Below, piece by piece: positions 9,483-52,371 of a stretch of DNA of 61,985 bases (positions are counted from its first letter, which is position 1; each line of letters opens with the position of its first letter). The DNA is from Acidimicrobiia bacterium. Lineage in GTDB: Bacteria > Actinomycetota > Acidimicrobiia > IMCC26256 > PALSA-555. Location: positions 1 through 61,985 of the forward strand of contig JBBQFJ010000002.1 in the NCBI GenBank assembly GCA_038321755.1, written 5' to 3'. The position numbers were made by a program, and so were the translations under genes. The notes beneath the pieces are model-generated. The model was not told the DNA's origin. It ran no database searches and was given only the letters and a program-made list of their open reading frames with translations.

Positions 9483-10984
9483 TCGGTCGGCGCGCCGCTC
9501 GGGCTGGCAGGGTCGCTGATGCGGGATGTGCCGACGCGCCGCGTCCCGACACCGCGGAGCACCTCCGGTGGGGTGCCGGCGTGATGGGCGCCGGCGTGAC
9601 CGAACCGATCCCACGCCTCGGAGAGCGCGGTGCGCAGCGTGGCCTCGATCCGGTCCAGCTCGGGGTCGGCGGCGATGAGCGGGGGTGAGAGCTGCACCAC
9701 GGGATCACCGCGATCATCCGCGCGGCAGATGATCCCGAGCTCGTAGAGCCGGGGTGACAGGAATCCGCGCAGCAGCTGCTCGGACTCCTCGTTCGTGAAC
9801 GATTCGCCCGTCTGCTGGTCGCGCACGAGCTCGAGCGCGAGGAAGTACCCGGCGCCGCGGACGTCACCGACGATCGGGATGTCGCGCAGGGCCTCGATCC
9901 GCTCCCGGAAGCCCGCTTCGTTGGCGCGCACATGGTTGAGCACACCCTCCGACTCCATCGCGTCGAGGTTTGCGAGCCCGACCGCGCAGCTGACGGGATG
10001 TCCGCCGAACGTGATGCCGTGGAGGAACGAAGCGTTGCCCTCGAGGAACGGCTCGGCGAGGTGATCGCGGCAGATGACCGCACCCAACGGCGAGTAGCCG
10101 CTCGTGAGGCCCTTCGCGCAGGTGATCATGTCGGGCAGGTAGTCGTAGCGCTCGGCGCCGAACCACTCTCCCAACCTCCCGAACGCGCAGATCACCTCGT
10201 CGGACACCAAGAGGACGCCGTACTTGTCGCAGATCTCGCGTACGCGCTGGAAGTAGACCTCGGGCGGGACGAAGCACCCGCCGGCGTTCTGCACCGGCTC
10301 GAGGTAGACCGCGGCGACCGTCTCGGGCCCCTCCCAGAGGATCTGCTCCTCGATCGCGTCGGTGACCGCGAGCATGAACGCCTTCTCGTCATCGGCCAGC
10401 GGGTGGCGGTAGCGATTCGTGTTGACGACGTGGCTTGCACCGGGGGTGAGTGGTTCGAAGGGAGTCTTCAGGCCGGGCAGCCCAGTGATCGCGAGCGCAC
10501 CGAGGGTCGTGCCGTGATACGCGATCTGCCGAGCGATCACCTTGTAGCGCTGCCCCTCGCCGCGAGCGCGGTGGTACTGGCGGGCGAGCTTCCACGCCGA
10601 CTCGACCGCCTCGGATCCACCGGTGGTGAAGAACACGCGATTGAGGTCTCCGGGCGCGAGCTCGGCGAGCTTGGCGGCGAGCTCGATCGCCGGCGGGTGC
10701 GCGTAGGTCCAGATCGGGAAGTACTCGAGTGTCTCGGCTTGGCGGGCGGCTGCCGCCGCGAGGTCGGCGCGGCCGTGACCGAGCTGCACGGTGAACAGCC
10801 CGGACAGCGCGTCGAGGTACTCCTTGCCGTGCGCGTCCCACACCCGACAGCCTTCGCCGCGCACGATGATCGGGACGGCGTTCGCGTCGTAGGACGCGAG
10901 TCGACTGAAGTGCATCCACAGGTGACGCTGGGCCAGCTGCTCGAGCTCCTCGGTGGTGTGGCCGTGTGCCGTGGTGTCGCTCAT
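9479..10984 (-). CDS. class III (omega) aminotransferase
   Basis: Class III PLP aminotransferase motifs (FFTTGGSEAVESA, LLVSDEVICAFGR). ATGA overlaps at both ends. Confidence 0.85.
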   Translation of the reverse strand: MSDTTAHGHTTEELEQLAQRHLWMHFSRLASYDANAVPIIVRGEGCRVWDAHGKEYLDALSGLFTVQLGHGRADLAAAAARQAETLEYFPIWTYAHPPAIELAAKLAELAPGDLNRVFFTTGGSEAVESAWKLARQYHRARGEGQRYKVIARQIAYHGTTLGALAITGLPGLKTPFEPLTPGASHVVNTNRYRHPLADDEKAFMLAVTDAIEEQILWEGPETVAAVYLEPVQNAGGCFVPPEVYFQRVREICDKYGVLLVSDEVICAFGRLGEWFGAERYDYLPDMITCAKGLTSGYSPLGAVICRDHLAEPFLEGNASFLHGITFGGHPVSCAVGLANLDAMESEGVLNHVRANEAGFRERIEALRDIPIVGDVRGAGYFLALELVRDQQTGESFTNEESEQLLRGFLSPRLYELGIICRADDRGDPVVQLSPPLIAADPELDRIEATLRTALSEAWDRFGHAGAHHAGTPPEVLRGVGTRRVGTSRISDPASPSGAPTE

Positions 10985-40810: not shown

Positions 40811-40883
40811 GACGTCCTCCCCCCTCCCGCGGGCCCTTGCTGCAGGCCCTTCCTGCAAGCTCTGGCCGGTCGGCGAATCTACC

Positions 40884-40928
40884 GGCTGCCGACGAGGCGG
40901 CTGCCGACGAGGCGGCTGCCGACGAGGC
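40884..40928. repeat. 15-bp tandem repeat x3 in a divergent intergenic region
   Basis: GGCTGCCGACGAGGC at 40884-40898, 40899-40913 and 40914-40928. Confidence 0.95.
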
Positions 40929-41060
40929 GGCGGCATGCTGGGCGGGCGCCCGGTGAGATCGCCCGCCCGAACCCACGTTGTGACCCCCGTGGTGGGGGCG
41001 TAACCTGAGGTCGCCCAGAAAATCGCGAGATGGAACCCGCGCGCCCTGGCGCTGTTGCTG

Positions 41061-43107: not shown

Positions 43108-43881
43108 CAGGCCCTCGAGCCACATGGGCAAGTCGTCGCGGTGCACACCCAGGCTCACGCCGGTGGCGGTGAGCTCGTCCGGCGGGCCGTCGAAGACGAT
43201 GCGTCGCTTCATCACGATGATCCGGTCGAGGTCGTCCGCGACCGCCCCGAGCTCGTGGGAGACGAGGAGCACGGCCGCTGCGTGATCGCGCACGAGGTGG
43301 ACGAGCGAGTCGCGGAACAGCTGTTGAGACTCGACATCGACGCCGGCGATCGGTTCGTCGAGCACGAGGAGCTCCGGCTCGCTCGCGAACGCCTTCGCGA
43401 TCAGGACCCGCTGCTGCTGTCCGCCCGAGAGCTCGCGCACCGGACGGCGGCGGAGGTGGTCGAGCGCGACCGACTCGAGCGCGTGGTCCACCGCGGCGCG
43501 GTCGATGGCGGTCCCGCGTCGCCACCAGCCGCGCCGAGCGAGCCGCCCGGTCGCGACGACCTCCTCGACCGTCGCCGGGAGATCCGGTGCGAGGGTGTGG
43601 CGTTGGGGCACGTACCCGACCCGCCCGCGGTCGGGCAGTCGGCGCGGGTCGGCACCGAGGCACCGGACGGTGCCGCCGTCGGGTCGGAGGAGACCGAGGA
43701 GCAGACGGAGCAGGGTCGACTTCCCGGACCCGTTCGGGCCCACGAGGGCGGCGAACTCCCCGGGGCCGATGGCGAACGACACGTGGTCGACCGCCGGTTC
43801 CGCGCCGTAGCTGAACGTGACGTCATCCGCCGCCAGCACCGAGGCCGGGGTGGGGACGGGCACCGGGGTGGGGACGGGCAC
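43102..43881 (-). CDS. metal ABC transporter ATP-binding protein (ZnuC/MntA type)
   Basis: [23 protein letters not shown] and LLVLDEP motifs. GTG start 43881, or the duplicated GTG at 43863. Confidence 0.85.
   Translation of the reverse strand: MPVPTPVPVPTPASVLAADDVTFSYGAEPAVDHVSFAIGPGEFAALVGPNGSGKSTLLRLLLGLLRPDGGTVRCLGADPRRLPDRGRVGYVPQRHTLAPDLPATVEEVVATGRLARRGWWRRGTAIDRAAVDHALESVALDHLRRRPVRELSGGQQQRVLIAKAFASEPELLVLDEPIAGVDVESQQLFRDSLVHLVRDHAAAVLLVSHELGAVADDLDRIIVMKRRIVFDGPPDELTATGVSLGVHRDDLPMWLEGLG
43845..43880. repeat. 18-bp tandem duplication x2 covering the start-codon region of the ABC ATPase gene
   Basis: CCGGGGTGGGGACGGGCA x2 on the plus strand. On the minus strand this gives GTGCCCGTCCCCACCCCG twice (VPVPTP VPVPTP), each with a GTG. 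Confidence 0.9.
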
Positions 43882-43921
43882 CGAGCAATCGTACGTCCGG
43901 ATGGCACGAAAGAGGGAACGG

Positions 43922-43942
43922 TAATAAGATTGATTCTCATGA
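43922..43942. promoter_or_regulatory. AT-rich Zur-box-like element overlapping the substrate-binding-protein start codon
   Basis: TAAGATTGATTCTCA matches the actinobacterial Zur core TGAAAATGATTTTCA at 11 of 15 positions. It is the only AT-rich patch locally. It contains a TAAGAT -10-like hexamer 8 nt before the ATG. Confidence 0.4.
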
Positions 43943-44916: not shown

Positions 44917-45381
44917 TCAGTCGGCGTTCGCGACCCTCGTGCCCACACCGACGCGTGGGGCGGGGAAGTCACCGTCTGGCCGTTGGATCCAGCGCTCCAC
45001 GCCCACCTCGCAGCTCTGGATCACCTTCCACGAGAGCACGCGCTTGGTCGGTGGTGCCGTGAACGAGATCGCGAAGGCGCTCGTTGCGCCTGAGGGCATC
45101 GAGCTGCCTGAGAACGTGATCGTCCTCGCGGTCGCCGTGGTCTGCCAGCCGTCCTTGGGCTCGGCCGTTGCGTTCTTCACTCCACGGGGCACGCGGAACC
45201 GCATGCTGATGATCGGCGAGACCTCGCATCCGTGCTCGGGGGTGAAGCCGACGGTGACCGTCTTCCCCGGCTTGACGCTGCTCGGGTCCGGTTCGACGTG
45301 GGCGCCCGCGGGGATCGCGGTCACCAGCAGCGCGCCGGCTCCGATGGCTGCAGCGATGACTGCTCGTCGAAGTCGGTGCAT
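44917..45381 (-). CDS. YcnI-like (DUF1775) secreted copper-binding protein
   Basis: The signal peptide ends ...IPAGA/HVEPDP, giving an N-terminal His in the mature protein. DGWQ motif and size are typical of DUF1775. Confidence 0.7.
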   Translation of the reverse strand: MHRLRRAVIAAAIGAGALLVTAIPAGAHVEPDPSSVKPGKTVTVGFTPEHGCEVSPIISMRFRVPRGVKNATAEPKDGWQTTATARTITFSGSSMPSGATSAFAISFTAPPTKRVLSWKVIQSCEVGVERWIQRPDGDFPAPRVGVGTRVANAD

Positions 45382-45441
45382 GGAGGTGCTCCTCGGGTTC
45401 GGCCGGCCGTGAACGGCATCGTGAGGTAGTCGCTCGTTCTC

Positions 45442-46476
45442 ATGCCCTGGTTCCCGCTGACCTGGTCCGGCAGTGCGGTGCCGGCAGTGCGGCCCGGCCT
45501 GGTGAAGCCCGACCGTGGGAAGATCGCTCCCGACGGGCATCGGAATCGATCGAGGCGCGAAGTGGGAGCTGGGCACGACCACGGGCATCCGACCGGCGTG
45601 CTTGGAGCGCGTCGCCGGGCCCTGTGGATCGCACTCGGTGCCAACGCCGCCTTCCTCGTGGTCGAGGTCGGCGCAGCCATCGCGTTCGGGTCGCTGGCGC
45701 TGCTCGCCGACGGTGTCCACATGATCTCCGACGTCGCGGCACTCGGGATCGCACTCGTCGCCCAGCAGCTCGCAACCGCTCGCGCCTCGTCGCGCCACAC
45801 GTACGGACTCGTGCGGGCCGAGGTCATCGGCGCCCAGGTGAACGCCGTCCTGCTGTTGGCCGCCGCCGTCTACATCGTGATCGAGGCGATCGGTCGCCTC
45901 GACGACCCGGGCACGATCAACGGTGCCGGCGTGATGGTGGTCGCCGCCGTGGGCCTCGTCGTCAACGTGGGGAGCGCGTGGGTGATCGCGCGGACCGCGG
46001 GCGCGAGTCTCAACATGAGGGGAGCGTTCTGGCATCTCGTCGGCGACGCACTCGGGTCACTCGGTGCGCTGATCGCGGGCGCCGCGGTCGTGCTGTTCGG
46101 TGCCGAATGGCTCGACCCGGTCATCTCGCTGTTCATCGCCGCGCTCGTGGTCGTCTCCGCGCTCGCGCTGCTCCGCGACGTCGGACGGGTCCTGCTCGAA
46201 GGTGTGCCCTCGGGGCTGCAGGTCGACGAGGTCGAGGCCGCGCTCGCGGGGAGCAACGGTGTCGAGGCGGTGCACCACCTGCATCTCTGGTCGCTCGGCT
46301 CCGAGACCCCCGCCCTGTCGGCGCACGTCGTGCTGACGGGTGAGCCGTCACTGCACGAGGCCCAGACCCGCGGCGACGTTCTCAAGGAGATGCTCGTCGA
46401 TCGGTTCGGGATCGCGCACGCAACGCTCGAGCTCGAGTGCCATGACTGTGGGGCCGAGCACGGCCCGCACGCCTGA
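45442..46476 (+). CDS. cation diffusion facilitator (CzcD/ZitB-like) exporter
   Basis: HDHGH N-terminal tract, LLADGVHMISD and HLWSL motifs. The true start may be GTG 45562. Confidence 0.85.
   Translation: MPWFPLTWSGSAVPAVRPGLVKPDRGKIAPDGHRNRSRREVGAGHDHGHPTGVLGARRRALWIALGANAAFLVVEVGAAIAFGSLALLADGVHMISDVAALGIALVAQQLATARASSRHTYGLVRAEVIGAQVNAVLLLAAAVYIVIEAIGRLDDPGTINGAGVMVVAAVGLVVNVGSAWVIARTAGASLNMRGAFWHLVGDALGSLGALIAGAAVVLFGAEWLDPVISLFIAALVVVSALALLRDVGRVLLEGVPSGLQVDEVEAALAGSNGVEAVHHLHLWSLGSETPALSAHVVLTGEPSLHEAQTRGDVLKEMLVDRFGIAHATLELECHDCGAEHGPHA
45467..45494. repeat. 14-bp tandem duplication x2
   Basis: CCGGCAGTGCGGTG CCGGCAGTGCGGCC, in the YcnI/CDF divergent region or the extreme 5' end of the CDF ORF. 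Confidence 0.9.
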
Positions 46477-46478
46477 CC

Positions 46479-47672
46479 TCAGTCCGGCGTCACCTGACCG
46501 GTCGGGCTCGGCACGGACGGCGTCGAGCGAGTCAGTCGACGGCGTGGTGGGCGATCGGGGCGAAGACGCAGGGCGCCGGCCACTGCGAGACCGAGGCCGA
46601 GGCCGAGCGCCAAGGTGACCGTCAGCCGGGCCACGGCCGGCGACAGGGTGGTCGGCAGCTGTGACTTGGTGAGCACGGTGATGTCGGCGAGCCCGCCCGC
46701 GAGCACGACGAACAGCCCCGCGATGAGGACGAGGGGTGCAGCCGCGCTCAGCCCGCGCCGGACCAACCAGATGAGCGCGAGTACGGCGACGACGATCCCC
46801 CCGAGCGCGTAGACGCTGGCGGCGAGCTTCGTCCCACCGCTCACCGTCGTCGCACCCCACCCGCCGACCACGTGCAGCGTCTCGCTCAGTGCGACCACCA
46901 CCAGGGTGGTGCCGATGGCGATCGACGCGAAGCGGCTGCGGCTCAGGGCGACGATCGTCAGCGCGAGCACGACGGCTGCGGCGATCCACGGCCAGGGCGA
47001 CGGTCCGGGCACCCACCGGACGTCGCCCCGCACCGAGATCGTCCCGGCGCTCCGACGGAGCTGGACCTCGAAGCGCTGGACCAGGTGGGGTGACGCCGGG
47101 TCGGTCTGGACCACCGGCGCTTCGCCGCTCCCCATCCAGTGCGCACGGTGGTCGTGCCATCGGGCGGTCGTGCCGTCGGACAGCTTGTGCCACTCCGGGG
47201 TCGCCTCGGGATCGGCGATCTTCGGGACCGGCGCGGAGGCCGTTCCGTTCCTGGTGCGGTTGAGGTACACGGCCGGGGAGCGGCGGTTCTCGAAGACGCC
47301 GCGCGGACCGACCCGCAGGTACGGCTCGTCGTCGTAGCCCACGACGGTCACATCGGCGTCGCTGGTGTTGCGCAGCTCCAGCCGGTTGCCGAGGTCGACC
47401 GCGCTCACGTGGATCCCCCGCACGGCCGGGCGAACCGAGAGCACGCGCGTCTCGTAGTTGCTGGGGCGGACGCCACCGATCCCGTGCGCGTCGGCTCGAT
47501 CGGGTGAGACGACGACGGCCGCAATCCCGAGCAGCACCGCCACCGCGCCGATGCGGCCGACGGTCCTCAGGAAGCCGCCCGTCCTCGAGCCGCCGGTCAG
47601 GGAGCCGCCGGTCAGCGAGCCGCCGGTCAGGGAGCCGCCGGTCAGGGAGCCGCCGGTCAGTGAGAAGGTCAT
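46479..47672 (-). CDS. uncharacterised polytopic membrane protein with His-rich extracytoplasmic domain
   Basis: ATGA overlap with the ECF sigma stop. (GGSLT)n N-terminus, signal-like segment ...SPDRADA/HGIGG, WHDHRAHW motif, then about 5 hydrophobic segments. No family recognised. Confidence 0.65.
   Translation of the reverse strand: MTFSLTGGSLTGGSLTGGSLTGGSLTGGSRTGGFLRTVGRIGAVAVLLGIAAVVVSPDRADAHGIGGVRPSNYETRVLSVRPAVRGIHVSAVDLGNRLELRNTSDADVTVVGYDDEPYLRVGPRGVFENRRSPAVYLNRTRNGTASAPVPKIADPEATPEWHKLSDGTTARWHDHRAHWMGSGEAPVVQTDPASPHLVQRFEVQLRRSAGTISVRGDVRWVPGPSPWPWIAAAVVLALTIVALSRSRFASIAIGTTLVVVALSETLHVVGGWGATTVSGGTKLAASVYALGGIVVAVLALIWLVRRGLSAAAPLVLIAGLFVVLAGGLADITVLTKSQLPTTLSPAVARLTVTLALGLGLGLAVAGALRLRPDRPPRRRLTRSTPSVPSPTGQVTPD
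47574..47663. repeat. 15-bp in-frame tandem repeat x6 (5 good + 1 degenerate)
   Basis: GCCGCCGGTCAG(G/C/T)GA units on the plus strand. They encode GGSLT repeats at the N-terminus of the 46479-47672 ORF. Confidence 0.95.
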
Positions 47673-48202
47673 CCCGCTTCTTCGGCCGCACGCAGCGCGT
47701 CGATCAGGTCGCCGCGTGCACGCGCCACGCGGGAACGGATCGTGCCGACGGGAACACCACACACGGACGCGGCCTCTTCGTAGGAGGCGCCGACGAGCTG
47801 CGTGAGCACGAACGCCTCCCGGCGCTCGGGCCTGAGCCCAGCGACGAGTGCGTCGAGCGCGTGCGCTGCAGATTCGTCAGGCGTCGTGGCGCCATCAGTG
47901 CCGGCCTCGAGTCGCATCCGCCCGTCGAGGCGTCGTCGCCGGCCGCGAGCGCGCAGCGAGTCGGCGCACGCGCGCCGTGCGATCGTGAGCAACCAGGTGC
48001 GCGCACTTGCGTCGGCTCGGTAGGCCGCGAGCGCCCGCCACGCGCGGACGTACACGTCCTGCGTGACATCGTCCGCTTCCGACGGATCGGTGAGGTGCGC
48101 GACGAGACGCCACACTTCGCCCTGGCTCTGGCGCACGAAGGCACCGAGGGCGAGGCGGTCGCCGTCGCGGGCCGCTACGGCCAGCCGCGTGAGCTCATCC
48201 AC
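47669..48202 (-). CDS. ECF-type RNA polymerase sigma factor
   Basis: Region 2 (DVTQDVYVRAWRAL) and region 4 (SYEEAASVCGVPVGTIRSRVARAR). GTG start 48202. Confidence 0.85.
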   Translation of the reverse strand: MDELTRLAVAARDGDRLALGAFVRQSQGEVWRLVAHLTDPSEADDVTQDVYVRAWRALAAYRADASARTWLLTIARRACADSLRARGRRRRLDGRMRLEAGTDGATTPDESAAHALDALVAGLRPERREAFVLTQLVGASYEEAASVCGVPVGTIRSRVARARGDLIDALRAAEEAG

Positions 48203-48256
48203 CGTCGACCGACGATACTGGGGAACCTCGGGCCGCCAGGAGTCGACTACCTGACC

Positions 48257-48880
48257 ATGGACTGTGAACGAACCAGGATCGAGATATCGGCGCGGCTCGA
48301 CGGCGAGGCGCCGAGCGCGCCGTCGGAGGCCGTCGCCACCCACCTCAGCATGTGCGCCCCGTGCCGTGCGTACGAGCTGGAGGCGACCGCGCTGCACCGC
48401 CAGGTGCGAGTCGCACGGGCGCCCGAGGTGCCGGACCTCACCGCCCGCATCCTCAGTGCCATCGGCGCGACGGAGCCGACGCCCGCGCCCAGCCATCTCG
48501 ATGCGTGGCGCCTCGGGCTCGCGTTCATCGGTGTCGTCCAGATCGGCCTCGGCGTGCCCGCGCTCCTCTTCGGCGCCGACGCCGGCCTGCCGGTGCACAC
48601 CGCTCGCCATCTCGGGTCCTTCGCCATCGCGCTCGCGGTCGGCTTCCTCTTCGCGGCGTGGCGGCCGAGCCGGGTGGCCGGGCTCTTCCCCGTCGCGGCG
48701 GCGTTGGTGGCCTGCCTCGTCTTCACCTCGATCGTCGACATCGCGAGCGGACGAGCCGCGCCGGGAGGGGAGCTCGGCCATGTGACCGAGCTCTTGGGTC
48801 TCGCGCTGCTCTGGCTCGTCCGGCGCTCGGCGCCCGACGAGGCTTCCGACGTGCGCGCGGTCGCACTGGGGCCGGCGTGA
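48257..48880 (+). CDS. zf-HC2 anti-sigma factor, polytopic membrane type
   Basis: N-terminal HLSMCAPC (H-x3-C-x2-C) followed by about 4 TM segments. Divergent from the sigma gene. Confidence 0.7.
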   Translation: MDCERTRIEISARLDGEAPSAPSEAVATHLSMCAPCRAYELEATALHRQVRVARAPEVPDLTARILSAIGATEPTPAPSHLDAWRLGLAFIGVVQIGLGVPALLFGADAGLPVHTARHLGSFAIALAVGFLFAAWRPSRVAGLFPVAAALVACLVFTSIVDIASGRAAPGGELGHVTELLGLALLWLVRRSAPDEASDVRAVALGPA

Positions 48881-50715
48881 TGCTCCGTCGTGCATTCGCG
48901 GTGCTCGCGCTCGCGGGGGGCATGGTGCTCCTCGTCGCGTCGCCCGCGTTCGCGCACGCCGAGCTCCTCGAGTCGAACCCGGCTCCCGGCGCGGTGCTGG
49001 TCAGTTCGCCGGCGAACATCACCTTGAACTTCACCGAGTCGGTCCGCGCCGACAACGGCGGGATCCGCGTCTTCGACACGGACGGTGAGCGGGTCGACAA
49101 GGGCGGCACGAAGACGTCGGGCGCCACCGTTCGCCTTCCCGTCCCGAAGCTCGACGACGGTTCCTACATCGTCACGTGGCGGGTGATCTCATCGGACTCC
49201 CACCCGATCCAGGGCGCGTTCACCTTCCAGGTCGGCGCCGGCGGTGGACCGGCCGCGACGAGTCGTGAGGTCACCGGCCTCGCGACGAAGCTCCTCGGCC
49301 AGCAGGGCGGCGACGCGGTCGTCGGTGCCGTGTACGGCGTCGTGCGTGGGCTCGTGTTCGCGGCCCTCGCGATCCTCATCGGGGGCGCGTTCTTCGTCGC
49401 GCTCGTCTCGCCCCGCGCGCGCACGTCGAAGCTGGCGCGACGCATCATCGGGTTCGGGTGGCTGTTGACCTTCGCGGCGACGATCGCCGGGTTGTTGCTC
49501 TACGGCCCGTACGTCTCGGGCCTCGGGCTCGGCGACTCCTTCTCGTCGAGCCTGCTCGACCAGACGGTCGGCGAGCGCTTCGGGCAGATGTGGCTCGCGC
49601 GCATCGTCATCCTGTTGTTGATCGCACCGCTCCTCCGGTTGCTCTTCCGCGCTCCCCGAGATGACGCTGCTGCGGTGGGTGCAGCGGCTGAGGGCGAGCC
49701 CTCTCCCCTTCCGACGTGGTGGTACGGCGTCGGCGGTCTGGCCGCCGTCGCGCTCGCGTCGACCCCCGGTCTGTCCGGCCACGCGATCTCCGGCGACTGG
49801 GTCACGGCTGCGGTCGTCGCGGACACGCTGCACGTGTTGGCGATGGCGGTCTGGCTCGGCGGCCTGGTCATCCTCGCGGCCGTGACGCTCCGGAGTCGCG
49901 CGATGGAGCAGATCCGAGCCGCCGTCCCGCGCTTCTCGCGTGTCGCGCTCACGTGCGTGATCGTCCTGGTCGGTACCGGCGCGTTCCAGACCTACCGACA
50001 GGTCGGCAGCCTCGACGCGCTCCGGAGCACCGACTACGGGCGCATCCTGGCGGTCAAGCTCGTGCTCTTCGCGGCAGTGATCGTCTTCGCCGCGTTCAGC
50101 CGTGAGGTCGTGTTCCGCCTCTTCGGCGAGTACGAGACTGCGCCGCCGCAGGTCCCGGCTGTGGCCGGCGGGTCGGACGACGACCAGGTCCCCGCGACTG
50201 CCGGCGACGAATCGTCCGACGGCGGCGCGCTCGATGACGAGTACTACGAGATCGACGAAGAGGTCGAGCTCCGCCACCTCCGTCGCTCGGTGTGGGCGGA
50301 GGCGATCCTCATGGTCGGCGTGCTCGTCGTCACCGCGCTGCTCGTGAACGCGGCTCCGGCGAAGACCGCGTTGGCCGATACGGCCGACGGCGGTGCGGTC
50401 GGCGTCACGATGAAGTCGAAGAAGGTCTGGGTCGACTTCACCGCGACCCCGGGCACGAAGGGCACCAACGAGATCCACGTCAACACGCTGAACCCCGCGG
50501 GTGCCCCGCTCGACGTCCAGGACCTCACCGTCACGATCGCGCTCCCCGAGAGCAAGATCGCTCCGATCACCATGCCGCTCCGGCGACTCAGCCCGGGCCA
50601 CTACTACGCGCCGGCGTTCGACGTCCCGCTCGAGGGTGACTGGCGCGTCACCGCGAACCCATTGGTCTCGGAGTTCGAGCAACCCACCTTGCGCGGCACG
50701 GTGACCTTCGGCTGA
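48880..50715 (+). CDS. CopC-CopD fusion protein with YtkA/FixH-like C-terminal domain
   Basis: Signal ...SPAFA/HAELLESNPAPGA (CopC N-terminal His). SDSHPIQG. Multi-TM CopD body. C-terminal beta-sandwich-like domain. Start overlaps the anti-sigma stop (GTGATG). Confidence 0.85.
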   Translation: MLRRAFAVLALAGGMVLLVASPAFAHAELLESNPAPGAVLVSSPANITLNFTESVRADNGGIRVFDTDGERVDKGGTKTSGATVRLPVPKLDDGSYIVTWRVISSDSHPIQGAFTFQVGAGGGPAATSREVTGLATKLLGQQGGDAVVGAVYGVVRGLVFAALAILIGGAFFVALVSPRARTSKLARRIIGFGWLLTFAATIAGLLLYGPYVSGLGLGDSFSSSLLDQTVGERFGQMWLARIVILLLIAPLLRLLFRAPRDDAAAVGAAAEGEPSPLPTWWYGVGGLAAVALASTPGLSGHAISGDWVTAAVVADTLHVLAMAVWLGGLVILAAVTLRSRAMEQIRAAVPRFSRVALTCVIVLVGTGAFQTYRQVGSLDALRSTDYGRILAVKLVLFAAVIVFAAFSREVVFRLFGEYETAPPQVPAVAGGSDDDQVPATAGDESSDGGALDDEYYEIDEEVELRHLRRSVWAEAILMVGVLVVTALLVNAAPAKTALADTADGGAVGVTMKSKKVWVDFTATPGTKGTNEIHVNTLNPAGAPLDVQDLTVTIALPESKIAPITMPLRRLSPGHYYAPAFDVPLEGDWRVTANPLVSEFEQPTLRGTVTFG

Positions 50716-50717
50716 GG

Positions 50718-51287
50718 ATGAGCACCGACACCGCCAACACGCTGTTCACCGCACTTACGTTCGTCGCGAACGTTGCCTTCCTCGCGCTCGCCCTCGTCGG
50801 GATCGCCGCACTCGTCTCGTCCGCAGGTCGGCGCCTCGCGGGGCGCGTGGTCGTGAGGCTGGGTCCGTACGCTCGGGGCGCGGCGGCGGCGGTCGCCGTC
50901 GTCACGATGCTCGGGAGCCTCTACTACTCGGAGATCGCCGGGTTCCTCCCGTGCGAGCTGTGCTGGTACCAGCGCATACTCATGTACCCGCTCTCGGCGA
51001 TCCTCGTCATCGGGGCGTTGCGTCGTGATCGCGGCGTGGTCTGGTACGCAGCGCCGTTCGTGGCTGTCGGCGCACCGCTGGCGCTCTACCACTGGCTCGT
51101 CGAACGTGTGCCGTCGTTCGCGGAGAGCACGTCGTGCTCGGTGCTCGTGCCGTGCGCGATTCCATACTTCGAGGAACTCGGGTACCTCACTCTGGCGTTC
51201 ATGGACATGAGTGCCTTTTTGCTGATCGGCGCCCTGCTCGTCATCGACTGGCGAGCGCATCGGGGAGCCAAGGAGACCACGACATGA
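50718..51287 (+). CDS. DsbB/BdbC-like disulfide bond formation protein
   Basis: PCELCWYQRILMYP motif, 4 TM segments and a second Cys pair (STSCSVLVPC). Confidence 0.75.
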   Translation: MSTDTANTLFTALTFVANVAFLALALVGIAALVSSAGRRLAGRVVVRLGPYARGAAAAVAVVTMLGSLYYSEIAGFLPCELCWYQRILMYPLSAILVIGALRRDRGVVWYAAPFVAVGAPLALYHWLVERVPSFAESTSCSVLVPCAIPYFEELGYLTLAFMDMSAFLLIGALLVIDWRAHRGAKETTT

Positions 51288-51916
51288 CTCGACGAATCAC
51301 TCGATTGGCGACGTTGGGTCTGGTGATCGCCGCGATGGTGGCCATCGCCGCGGTTCCCGCATCGGCCAAGAGCACGAAGACCGAGGTGAGCAAGAAGGTC
51401 GTGGTCAGCGGTGCCGCGCTCGCGACCTCGGACGCGGTGGGCACCTCCAAGGACCCGGCGATCGGCAAGACCGGGCCCACGCTCAGCGGGCAAGGTTTCG
51501 ACGGCATGAAGGTCAGGATCGGCGGGACGTCCGAGCACGGCCGTGTACTCATCTTCGTCGCGCACTGGTGCCCGCACTGCCAGGCCGAGGTCCCCAAGAT
51601 CGTGAAGCTCGCGAAGCAAGGCAAGCTCGCAGGGATCGACCTCCAGACGATCGCGACCGACACGAACAAGGAGCTCCCGAACTACCCGCCCTCGAAGTGG
51701 CTCTCCCGGGAGAAGTGGCCCTTCACGCCAGTGCTCGCCGACGACGCGAAGGACTCGGCCCTGCAGGCATACGGCGGGACGAGCTTTCCGTTCTTCGTGC
51801 TCCTGGACGCGAACAACAAGGTCGTCGTCCGGACCAGCGGTGAGATCCCGCCGGCCGCACTCGCACAAGCGGTGAAGAACCTCGCGGCAGGGAAGCCGGT
51901 CTTCGGCTCGAACTAG
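51284..51916 (+). CDS. TlpA/ResA-like membrane-anchored thioredoxin
   Basis: FVAHWCPHCQAE motif and an N-terminal anchor. ATGA overlap with the DsbB-like gene. Confidence 0.8.
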   Translation: MTRRITRLATLGLVIAAMVAIAAVPASAKSTKTEVSKKVVVSGAALATSDAVGTSKDPAIGKTGPTLSGQGFDGMKVRIGGTSEHGRVLIFVAHWCPHCQAEVPKIVKLAKQGKLAGIDLQTIATDTNKELPNYPPSKWLSREKWPFTPVLADDAKDSALQAYGGTSFPFFVLLDANNKVVVRTSGEIPPAALAQAVKNLAAGKPVFGSN

Positions 51917-52371
51917 GAGCAGTCGCGGCAGCGACCGACGAGGTCGATGCGATGGTGCTCGGTCGTGAAGCCCGTCGCGCGGTCGATCTCGGACACGGCG
52001 GCGTGCAGCGACGCCTCCAACCCGGCTGACGCCGGCACATCCTCGACGGCTCCGCAGGACGAGCACACGAGGTGGTGGTGGTGGTCGCCGGTGAGGTCCT
52101 CGGCGAGCTCGAACCTTGCGTGCTCGTCGTTCGTGACGAGGCGATGCACGACTCCAGCCTGCTCGAGGACGACGAGGTTGCGGTAGACGCTGCTCTGGGC
52201 GAGCCCGCCGCGCTCGTCGAGGATCTCGGGGATCGTGAGCGGACGTGTCGCATCGCGCAGCACGTCGACGAGCGCAGAACGGTTTCCGGTCATGCGTTGG
52301 TTGACCCGCCGGAGCCGGACCGCGACCTGCTGTTCCAGCGGCTCGGGACCCTCGGGTACCCGGGCGCGCAC
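51913..52371 (-). CDS. Fur-family metalloregulator (Zur-like)
   Basis: Winged helix (RSALVDVLRD...PLTIPEIL), HHHHLVCSSCG and CRDC motifs. Start is GTG 52371 or ATG 52293. Its stop shares CTAG with the tlpA-like stop. Confidence 0.8.
   Translation of the reverse strand: MRARVPEGPEPLEQQVAVRLRRVNQRMTGNRSALVDVLRDATRPLTIPEILDERGGLAQSSVYRNLVVLEQAGVVHRLVTNDEHARFELAEDLTGDHHHHLVCSSCGAVEDVPASAGLEASLHAAVSEIDRATGFTTEHHRIDLVGRCRDCS

Follow-up and report, generated by a model that had tools for sequence, protein, structure and literature searches.

What does a sigma factor encoded in the middle of a copper-handling locus control, and which signal releases it? We asked this of a 61,985-nucleotide stretch of DNA (hereafter the window) from an Acidimicrobiia bacterium (GenBank assembly GCA_038321755.1, contig JBBQFJ010000002.1, positions 1 to 61,985), which is about 70% G+C and whose closest relatives are Acidimicrobiia metagenome-assembled genomes (MAGs). 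Here an extracytoplasmic function (ECF) sigma factor gene and a divergent anti-sigma gene stand among genes for a CopC-CopD importer (copCD), a YcnI-like protein, a DsbB-like oxidoreductase, a TlpA-like thioredoxin-fold protein and a membrane protein that we call Unk. Judging from promoter sequences, the anti-sigma–copCD–dsbB–tlpA and ycnI operons are very probably targets of this sigma factor. We further consider it reasonably probable that the locus works, in full, as a SigC-type (ECF36) switch with negative feedback, driving an uptake regulon that copper starvation induces.

The evidence for control by the sigma factor is a shared promoter. A SigC-type element, GGGAACC-N16-CGACTACCT, lies on the plus strand before the anti-sigma gene (48221-48252), where its CGAC ends 9 nt from the ATG, and the same element lies on the minus strand before ycnI (45424-45455), where the −10 box ends about 45 nt from the ATG and is followed by a GAGGAG ribosome-binding site. 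The short distance at the anti-sigma gene implies that the mRNA would be leaderless. The 16 specified bases occur exactly twice in the window, both times in the correct orientation before a gene of the cluster, and even with three mismatches permitted only 0.6 matches would be expected. Looser matches at 1524, 19094 and 24234 (three mismatches) are inside coding regions or have no cluster gene downstream, and we attribute them to chance.

The element is also kept at orthologous places in relatives. We gathered 80 species-level genome loci through alignment of the Unk protein, annotated them by tblastn and examined flanks of ±10 kb; locus counts are given over 84 related loci. The core of the element, GGAAC-N17-CGAC, has a background density of 0.044 per kb and precedes every anti-sigma gene of these loci (37/37), nearly always 9-11 nt from the ATG. 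The SigC-type motif recurs before ycnI in nine loci (L002, L003, L006, L008, L014, L046, L049, L062 and L073), before a separately encoded dsbB(-tlpA) in four (L046, L049, L062 and L073), before copCD in three and before unk in two. In the closest syntenic loci, L002 and L003, both promoter boxes are kept and the spacers vary. A preliminary description of this locus had suggested a motif search upstream of both divergent units, and the search returned an identical ECF-type promoter before the anti-sigma–copCD–dsbB–tlpA operon and before ycnI; since this promoter is shared and is kept at orthologous places, control of CopCD–DsbB–TlpA and ycnI by the sigma pair is very probable. Two loci that lack the pair, L015 and L017, retain the SigC-type motif before copCD, which implies the use of a sigma factor encoded elsewhere.

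The boxes in the window match GGGAAC(T/C) and CGACTA, the consensus of sigma-C of Corynebacterium glutamicum, for which −35 GGGAACT and −10 CGACTA have been determined experimentally (PMC5483222). The ECF36 entry of the ECF classification instead gives the motif GTC-Xn-GTTCCCG and says that it differs from that of Toyoda & Inui (bioRxiv 10.1101/2019.12.11.873521, supplement file 4). Read as its reverse complement, CGGGAAC-Xn-GAC, this motif is the promoter, of sigma-C type, that stands before the divergent anti-sigma gene; the disagreement with the Toyoda & Inui consensus thereby disappears. This corrects a strand misreading in the classification entry.

The sigma factor itself (47669-48202, minus strand; 177 aa) has a two-domain ECF architecture, with Sigma70_r2 and Sigma70_r4_2 only. 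Its nearest relative in our searches is SigC (ECF36). The top named NCBIfam model is SigC, at 138 bits and thus under the equivalog cut-off of 219, the next named model is SigM at 86 bits, and the top matches in the Protein Data Bank (PDB) are sigma-2 (74 bits over 92 aa) and sigma-4 (57 bits over 51 aa) of Mycobacterium tuberculosis SigC. Relatives come from Acidimicrobiia, Actinomycetes or Frankia records, with other taxa named for a few MAGs. SigC is assigned to ECF36, a group found only in Actinobacteria and controlled by zinc-finger anti-sigma (ZAS) factors with four transmembrane (TM) helices, encoded at position −1 (bioRxiv 10.1101/2019.12.11.873521 supplement, ECF Hub). The preliminary description had taken the sigma type to be undescribed; with a four-TM ZAS anti-sigma at −1, it matches the ECF36/SigC type that was already on record. 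The link between SigC and copper starvation was likewise known, from M. tuberculosis (PMC7924339) and C. glutamicum (PMC7337898).

The anti-sigma gene (48257-48880, plus strand; Pfam zf-HC2) is divergent from the sigma gene across a gap of 54 bp. By domain content and predicted topology, its product is an anti-sigma factor of the kind described for ECF36, a ZAS protein with four TM helices at position −1. An alignment of 37 sequences has four conserved hydrophobic segments, which are the predicted TM helices, and we oriented them by the positive-inside rule. Two groups of residues are invariant in all 37 sequences. C3, H29, C33 and C36, the four zinc ligands expected of a ZAS protein, make up an H-x3-C-x2-C motif and an upstream Cys and are predicted to be cytoplasmic. 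D108, H114, H118, D161, E172 and H175 are predicted to lie on the outer face of the membrane, where the six together look like a metal site. The protein presumably binds its cognate sigma factor and holds it.

The sigma gene appears to be expressed in a different way. A housekeeping-type −10 hexamer, TATCGT (TANNNT), lies on the minus strand at 48212-48217, 9 nt from the GTG of the sigma gene, and is its putative promoter. TANNNT is found at the matching place in most of 33 related loci with the divergent pair, and it is also kept before unk in loci without the sigma gene. The sigma gene is therefore probably not autoregulated, its transcription is probably constitutive, and the sigma–unk transcript would be leaderless and not ECF-driven. 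Leaderless transcripts are common in Actinobacteria. The ECF36 entry also suggests that the sigma factor is not autoregulated (bioRxiv 10.1101/2019.12.11.873521 supplement). Only 4 nt separate the ECF −35 box from the housekeeping −10 box, which stand back to back (48212-48226), and the 54 bp between the two genes may hence be contested by two RNA polymerase holoenzymes.

Some related loci bear on the history and annotation of the sigma gene. In three loci without the pair, L014 (~9870-9905), L015 and L017 (both ~9860-9935), a housekeeping-type box, CCAGTA(T/A)CGTC, and the opening codons of a sigma gene (MDELTR, VDELAR or VDELTR) are left before unk, which suggests secondary deletion of the sigma pair. 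Apparent sigma–Unk fusions (P0045, P0013 and P0016) seem to stem from frameshifts or read-through in the gene calling of long-read assemblies and not to be genuine. In P0045 (L001, 10001-11590), sigma and unk are called as one 529-aa open reading frame on a 3.55-Mb long-read contig, and its sequence diverges after ...RSRVARAR, so that it is probably a frameshift artefact rather than a tethered sigma factor. Both L001 and L004 carry fur, sigma, unk and a cation diffusion facilitator (CDF) gene, with no anti-sigma or copCD gene found within 10 kb.

The putative targets consist of copper-handling and thiol-redox genes. The copCD product (48877-50715, plus strand) begins with a CopC domain (91.8 bits, Pfam), in which H27, the predicted first residue after cleavage, aligns with residue 1 of solved CopC proteins and of the CopC domain of Bacillus subtilis YcnJ (9c14), and in which the D-x-H Cu(II) ligands are kept (SSDSH aligned to SVDTH). 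A CopD domain follows (PF05425, 58.3 bits against a cut-off of 32.1; NF033808, 100.7 bits, under the 195-bit equivalog cut-off), and the C-terminus is weakly FixH/YtkA-like, with FixH as its only match (23.6 bits against a cut-off of 23, residues 531-594) and no match to a YtkA model. YcnJ is a high-affinity copper importer that is used in starvation and feeds heme-copper oxidases (PMC13344008). Next in the operon is a DsbB-family, BdbC-like protein (50718-51287, plus strand; Pfam DsbB PF02600, 49 bits; PRK03113, 113 bits against a cut-off of 124) with the CELC and C-x5-C cysteine pairs of a membrane thiol oxidoreductase family. The last gene encodes a TlpA/ResA-like thioredoxin-fold protein (51284-51916, plus strand; Redoxin 41 bits, AhpC-TSA 35.5 bits, Thioredoxin), predicted to be exported by virtue of an N-terminal hydrophobic segment and carrying a CPHC active-site motif (WCPHC).

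The second unit, ycnI, encodes a DUF1775 protein (44917-45381, minus strand; PF07987, 53.7 bits against a cut-off of 25, E 3.8e-14) that is predicted to be secreted and is copper-binding by family. YcnI binds Cu(II) through a monohistidine brace of His, Glu and Trp (PMC8424229). In the window protein H28 follows AGA, E49 lies 21 residues further on and W131 is near the C-terminus, ligands that we equate by position only; a phmmer comparison with solved YcnI structures gave no match. None of the annotated cluster genes is a resistance gene of the CopA, CsoR or multicopper-oxidase type.

Together, these components suggest a circuit. The sigma factor and Unk would be co-transcribed as a leaderless mRNA from the housekeeping-type promoter, with the sigma factor always made, and the four-TM zinc-finger anti-sigma would keep it inactive at the membrane. 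Once released, the sigma factor would direct transcription from the GGGAAC(C/T)-N16-CGACTA promoters of two units, one being the leaderless operon for the anti-sigma, the YcnJ-type CopC-CopD-(YtkA-like) importer, the DsbB-like oxidoreductase and the CPHC thioredoxin-fold protein, and the other being ycnI. Because the anti-sigma gene comes first in the induced operon, the circuit would have negative feedback and no positive autoregulation. The inducing signal is most likely copper scarcity, which would be sensed at the outer His/Asp/Glu cluster of the anti-sigma, with the His-tipped Unk ectodomain perhaps taking part. We infer where the transcripts start, that sigma and anti-sigma interact, in which direction the signal acts, where metal is sensed and what Unk does. 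Copper starvation is favored as the inducer because M. tuberculosis needs SigC for growth in copper-poor medium (PMC7924339), because copper deprivation activates the sigma-C regulon of C. glutamicum (PMC7337898), because of the function of YcnJ, and because the cluster has no efflux or detoxification gene.

Several observations weigh against this proposal. The sigma factor stays below the SigC equivalog cut-off, and the stimulus proposed for SigC in C. glutamicum is defective electron flow through the aa3 oxidase, not copper itself (PMC7337898). The ligands on the outer face of the anti-sigma could bind zinc or be structural, and a Zur/Znu/CDF module adjoins. Many relatives, moreover, have no sigma pair nearby and still retain unk and copCD, so that the core function does not need the switch.

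The same wiring could also operate with the opposite sign, such that copper excess, or thiol or envelope stress driven by copper, fires the switch, and CopC, YcnI and the DsbB/CPHC pair sequester copper and repair mis-oxidised extracellular cysteines in the manner of Scs/Cop resistance. This would account for a DsbB-like and a CPHC thioredoxin-fold protein in the regulon, and it fits the HxxxCxxC ZAS motif, which in some anti-sigmas, RsrA among them, responds to redox state; the RsrA NCBIfam model gave a weak match in the scan of the locus. CopC and CopD were, in addition, originally named as resistance proteins, and ECF291 of Proteobacteria ties CopC/CopD to a metal-resistance sigma factor. 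However, the importer appears to have the three-domain architecture of YcnJ, which is tied to starvation, SigC is linked with copper starvation in two organisms, the cluster lacks an efflux ATPase, CsoR or multicopper oxidase, and most ZAS proteins are not known to be redox sensors. We thus regard induction by excess as rather unlikely, and prefer induction by scarcity.

Promoter specificity identical to that of C. glutamicum sigma-C would also suit a sigma factor that answers respiratory-chain failure (an inactive heme-copper oxidase), as proposed in that organism, rather than copper directly; in that case a membrane or redox cue would act on the anti-sigma, with copper uptake as one of several outputs. 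Such a role appears quite improbable, given that the regulon members found by motif all belong to extracytoplasmic copper handling or thiol redox, with no cyd or cta gene within ±10 kb, and given the metal-site appearance of the six invariant outward His/Asp/Glu residues. It is also conceivable that the locus is a zinc or mixed-metal island under the Fur/Zur-like regulator, and that the sigma pair and Unk respond to zinc. The adjoining CDF and Znu genes and the Zur-box-like site at znuA could be taken in this sense, as could the presence of fur in 34/84 loci, in six of which (L001, L004, L011, L013, L028 and L036) it stands directly before unk or sigma–unk. Zur-box-like sites were nevertheless nowhere near sigma, unk, copCD or ycnI in a scan for AT-rich palindromes, which GC-rich operators would escape, and CopC and YcnI have copper-specific ligand sets, making zinc control very improbable. 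Copper scarcity acting through an ECF36 pair remains our preferred reading.

The gene that shares a transcript with the sigma factor in this scheme is unk (46479-47672, minus strand), which encodes a membrane protein of 397 aa that neither Pfam nor NCBIfam matches. AlphaFold models have a predicted signal peptide with an AxA|H site, an Ig-like beta-sandwich ectodomain and five TM helices, and the AlphaFold2 predicted local distance difference test (pLDDT) score is 91.6 from residue 31 on and 94.5 for the ectodomain. Searched against PDB folds, neither the model from residue 31 nor the ectodomain alone gave a match at E<=0.001, and there was no match to the folds of CopC, YcnI, PCuAC or lytic polysaccharide monooxygenase (LPMO). 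Pentameric ligand-gated channels and DUF3244 Ig-like sandwiches were considered as fold candidates and set aside, with a best E of 0.02 and TM-scores of 0.18-0.33. The family is large, with 1118 matches among close relatives and 2170 clusters at 50% identity (E<=1e-3). The AxA|H junction is kept at 90% or more in an alignment of 94 sequences with identities as low as 31%; GY..EPYLR and W..WHDHR are conserved motifs, and the D and H of WHDHR are nearly invariant.

Homologs cover about 80% of the window protein and lack its N-terminal segment of about 30 residues. This segment is a (TGGSL)n stretch encoded by a 15-nt tandem repeat (47567-47664, minus strand; 6.5 copies, 86% matches). It precedes the core of the signal peptide, would give an unusually long n-region and is specific to the window. 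The ATG of the ATGA overlap with the sigma gene is therefore a plausible, though not proven, start of unk.

Despite its +1 position, translationally coupled to the sigma gene, we did not take Unk for the anti-sigma in our main reading: its N-terminus is a cleavable signal peptide, it occurs beside copCD without a sigma gene, and a true ZAS exists in the locus. In 57 of the 73 unk loci with 3 kb or more of flank upstream (78%), copCD lies within the fetched flanks, and we conclude from sequence and context that Unk is a predicted component of copper uptake. A more far-reaching proposal is that Unk founds a new family of membrane-anchored histidine-brace cuproproteins that capture copper with CopCD and YcnI and, in genomes with the sigma pair, serves as a copper receptor outside the cytoplasm that determines which state the four-TM ECF36 anti-sigma is in. 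We offer this tentatively and consider it doubtful as a whole. If true, this would give SigC-type sigma factors their first mechanism of direct copper sensing and would account for what SigC has lost in M. tuberculosis and C. glutamicum, where it lacks an anti-sigma.

Some members of the family carry additional domains. P0256 (813 aa) is fused to a DyP-type peroxidase, which echoes the DyP genes of actinobacterial copper loci; in C. glutamicum the DyP-type peroxidase gene cg1881 adjoins copC. Among the longer members scanned, of about 500 aa, P0145 and P0178 (~500-514 aa) have a weak SCP2-like C-terminal extension and most give no match.

The comparison also changes the view of what forms the core of the locus. 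The genes were re-derived from the sequence, each protein was scanned against Pfam and NCBIfam, and the nine genes of the preliminary description were all recovered at their positions, with coordinates and translations reproduced. Eight of the nine gain family matches in this way, and Unk is the one that gains none. The three overlaps by which the genes had been thought to be coupled are present, namely ATGA between sigma and unk (47669-47672, minus strand), GTGATG between anti-sigma and copCD (48877-48882) and ATGA between dsbB and tlpA (51284-51287), as are the three predicted junctions of a signal peptide with a mature N-terminal His (AGA|HVEP in YcnI, AFA|HAEL in CopC and ADA|HGIG in Unk). 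Gene content is thus read directly from sequence and comparison, as are the identity and conservation of the promoter and the type of anti-sigma. Conservation of the neighborhood, on which the earlier account depended, is borne out: the arrangement recurs in many species-level genomes and is therefore not due to chance. The idea of an island built around the sigma pair did not survive, because the best-conserved core is unk divergent to copCD, and the pair sits between these two genes in about 45% of related loci and is missing in the rest. In about 30 loci copCD–anti-sigma is divergent from sigma–unk, and in about 18 copCD is divergent from unk directly; a few have fur and then unk, or fur and then sigma and unk. 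In Frankia sp. EI5c, unk, ycnI and copCD form a single same-strand cluster.

The metal-transport genes around this core had also been counted as members of the island. The CDF, Fur/Zur and Znu genes have no SigC-type promoter, a Zur-box-like site lies at znuA (and, in two related loci, before CDF), and they look like a neighboring zinc module outside the sigma regulon. The CDF exporter (45562-46476, plus strand; Cation_efflux and ZT_dimer, TIGR01297 at 250 bits) is ZitB/CzcD-like, and its gene is present in 18/84 related loci. The Fur-family regulator (51913-52371, minus strand; Pfam FUR PF01475, 68.7 bits; GTG at 52371 assigned from sequence) has a GDHHHHLVCxxCG motif identical to that of Streptomyces coelicolor Zur and, further on, a CxxC pair; over the whole protein, its sequence distance to PerR (2fe3) and to S. 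coelicolor Zur (3mwm) is about the same. The start codon of znuA is overlapped by a partial palindrome rich in A and T, AATAAGATTGATTCTCATG (43923-43941, plus strand), which is likely a Zur box, and similar boxes, AATGAGAATCATGCTCAAT, precede the CDF gene in L019 and L027. These were the only places near cluster genes at which the AT-rich palindrome scan found such sites, and the scan, which GC-rich operators would escape, gave no support for Fur control of the copper genes, as no locus has one near sigma, unk, copCD or ycnI.

The locus shares features with several known systems. SigC of M. tuberculosis and sigma-C of C. glutamicum are its nearest sequence relatives, belong to an Actinobacteria-only group and use identical promoter boxes; the link to copper starvation is common to both, and the sigma gene is apparently not autoregulated, as here. 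Those sigma factors lack a separate anti-sigma and their activation signal is unsettled, whereas in the window a four-TM ZAS heads the induced operon. The known regulons also differ in content, with cydABDC, ctaA, ctaB and cg2556 in C. glutamicum and ctpB and nrp in M. tuberculosis, compared with a YcnJ-type importer, YcnI and DsbB/TlpA here. The ECF36 subgroups of the ECF Hub (Casas-Pastor et al. 2021) have the same four-TM ZAS at −1 and a conserved motif between both genes. Their context conservation "does not extend beyond" the sigma/anti-sigma pair (bioRxiv 10.1101/2019.12.11.873521 supplement), whereas the Acidimicrobiia set keeps copCD, unk and often dsbB-tlpA.

The ycnKJI system of B. 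subtilis has a CopC-CopD-YtkA importer, matched here by CopC-CopD with a weakly FixH/YtkA-like C-terminus, and likewise a DUF1775/YcnI protein for Cu(II); in each of the two proteins an N-terminal His serves as ligand. That system is controlled by the one-component repressor YcnK (and CsoR), in contrast to the ECF sigma/anti-sigma pair of the window, where YcnI also lacks the C-terminal membrane anchor of its B. subtilis counterpart and where DsbB, the CPHC thioredoxin-fold protein and Unk are added. CorE (ECF238, Myxococcus) and CnrH-like ECF291 with CopC/CopD neighbors are ECF sigma factors tied to copper or metal genes as well, but they belong to other ECF groups and phyla; CorE senses metal by its own C-terminal extension, and ECF291 has CnrYX-type one-TM anti-sigmas and controls efflux and resistance. 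A DsbB-family protein with two cysteine pairs beside an exported CxxC thioredoxin-fold protein recalls the BdbC/BdbD and TlpA/ResA pairs, yet the partner here joins a Redoxin/TlpA-like fold to a DsbA-like CPHC motif.

The preliminary description had regarded an ECF-controlled CopCD plus oxidative-folding module as unreported. The ECF type is known; the wiring of ECF36 to YcnJ, YcnI, DsbB and TlpA, and the Unk family, had no account in our literature search, nor did a thiol-redox pair that an ECF sigma factor regulates jointly with a copper importer. What appears new is therefore the direct wiring of an ECF36 sigma to a YcnJ-type importer, YcnI, DsbB/TlpA and the Unk family, which would link thiol-redox enzymes to copper import and points to a large family without annotation as probably a new component of copper uptake in bacteria. 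Virulence of M. tuberculosis and control of the respiratory chain in Corynebacterium both involve SigC, and how it is switched on is an unsolved question, since an anti-sigma is missing from both model organisms. This locus and at least 30 relatives offer a SigC-type sigma factor whose anti-sigma is embedded in a copper-importer operon, along with a regulon defined by comparison and a small set of invariant outward residues as mutation targets, so that sensing becomes testable.

A few features of the local DNA may be added. The genes tlpA and fur are convergent and their stop codons overlap in CTAG (51913-51916), and the convergent CDF and unk genes have stop codons 2 nt apart (46474-46481); these tight junctions leave no space for terminators between the genes. 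Two further perfect tandem repeats occur in the window. One, at 40883-40931, has a 15-nt unit in 3.3 copies and gives PPRRQ- or RRLPT-type repeats depending on the frame, and the other, at 43845-43883, has an 18-nt unit in 2.2 copies at the 5' end of znuC and encodes (PVPT)n.

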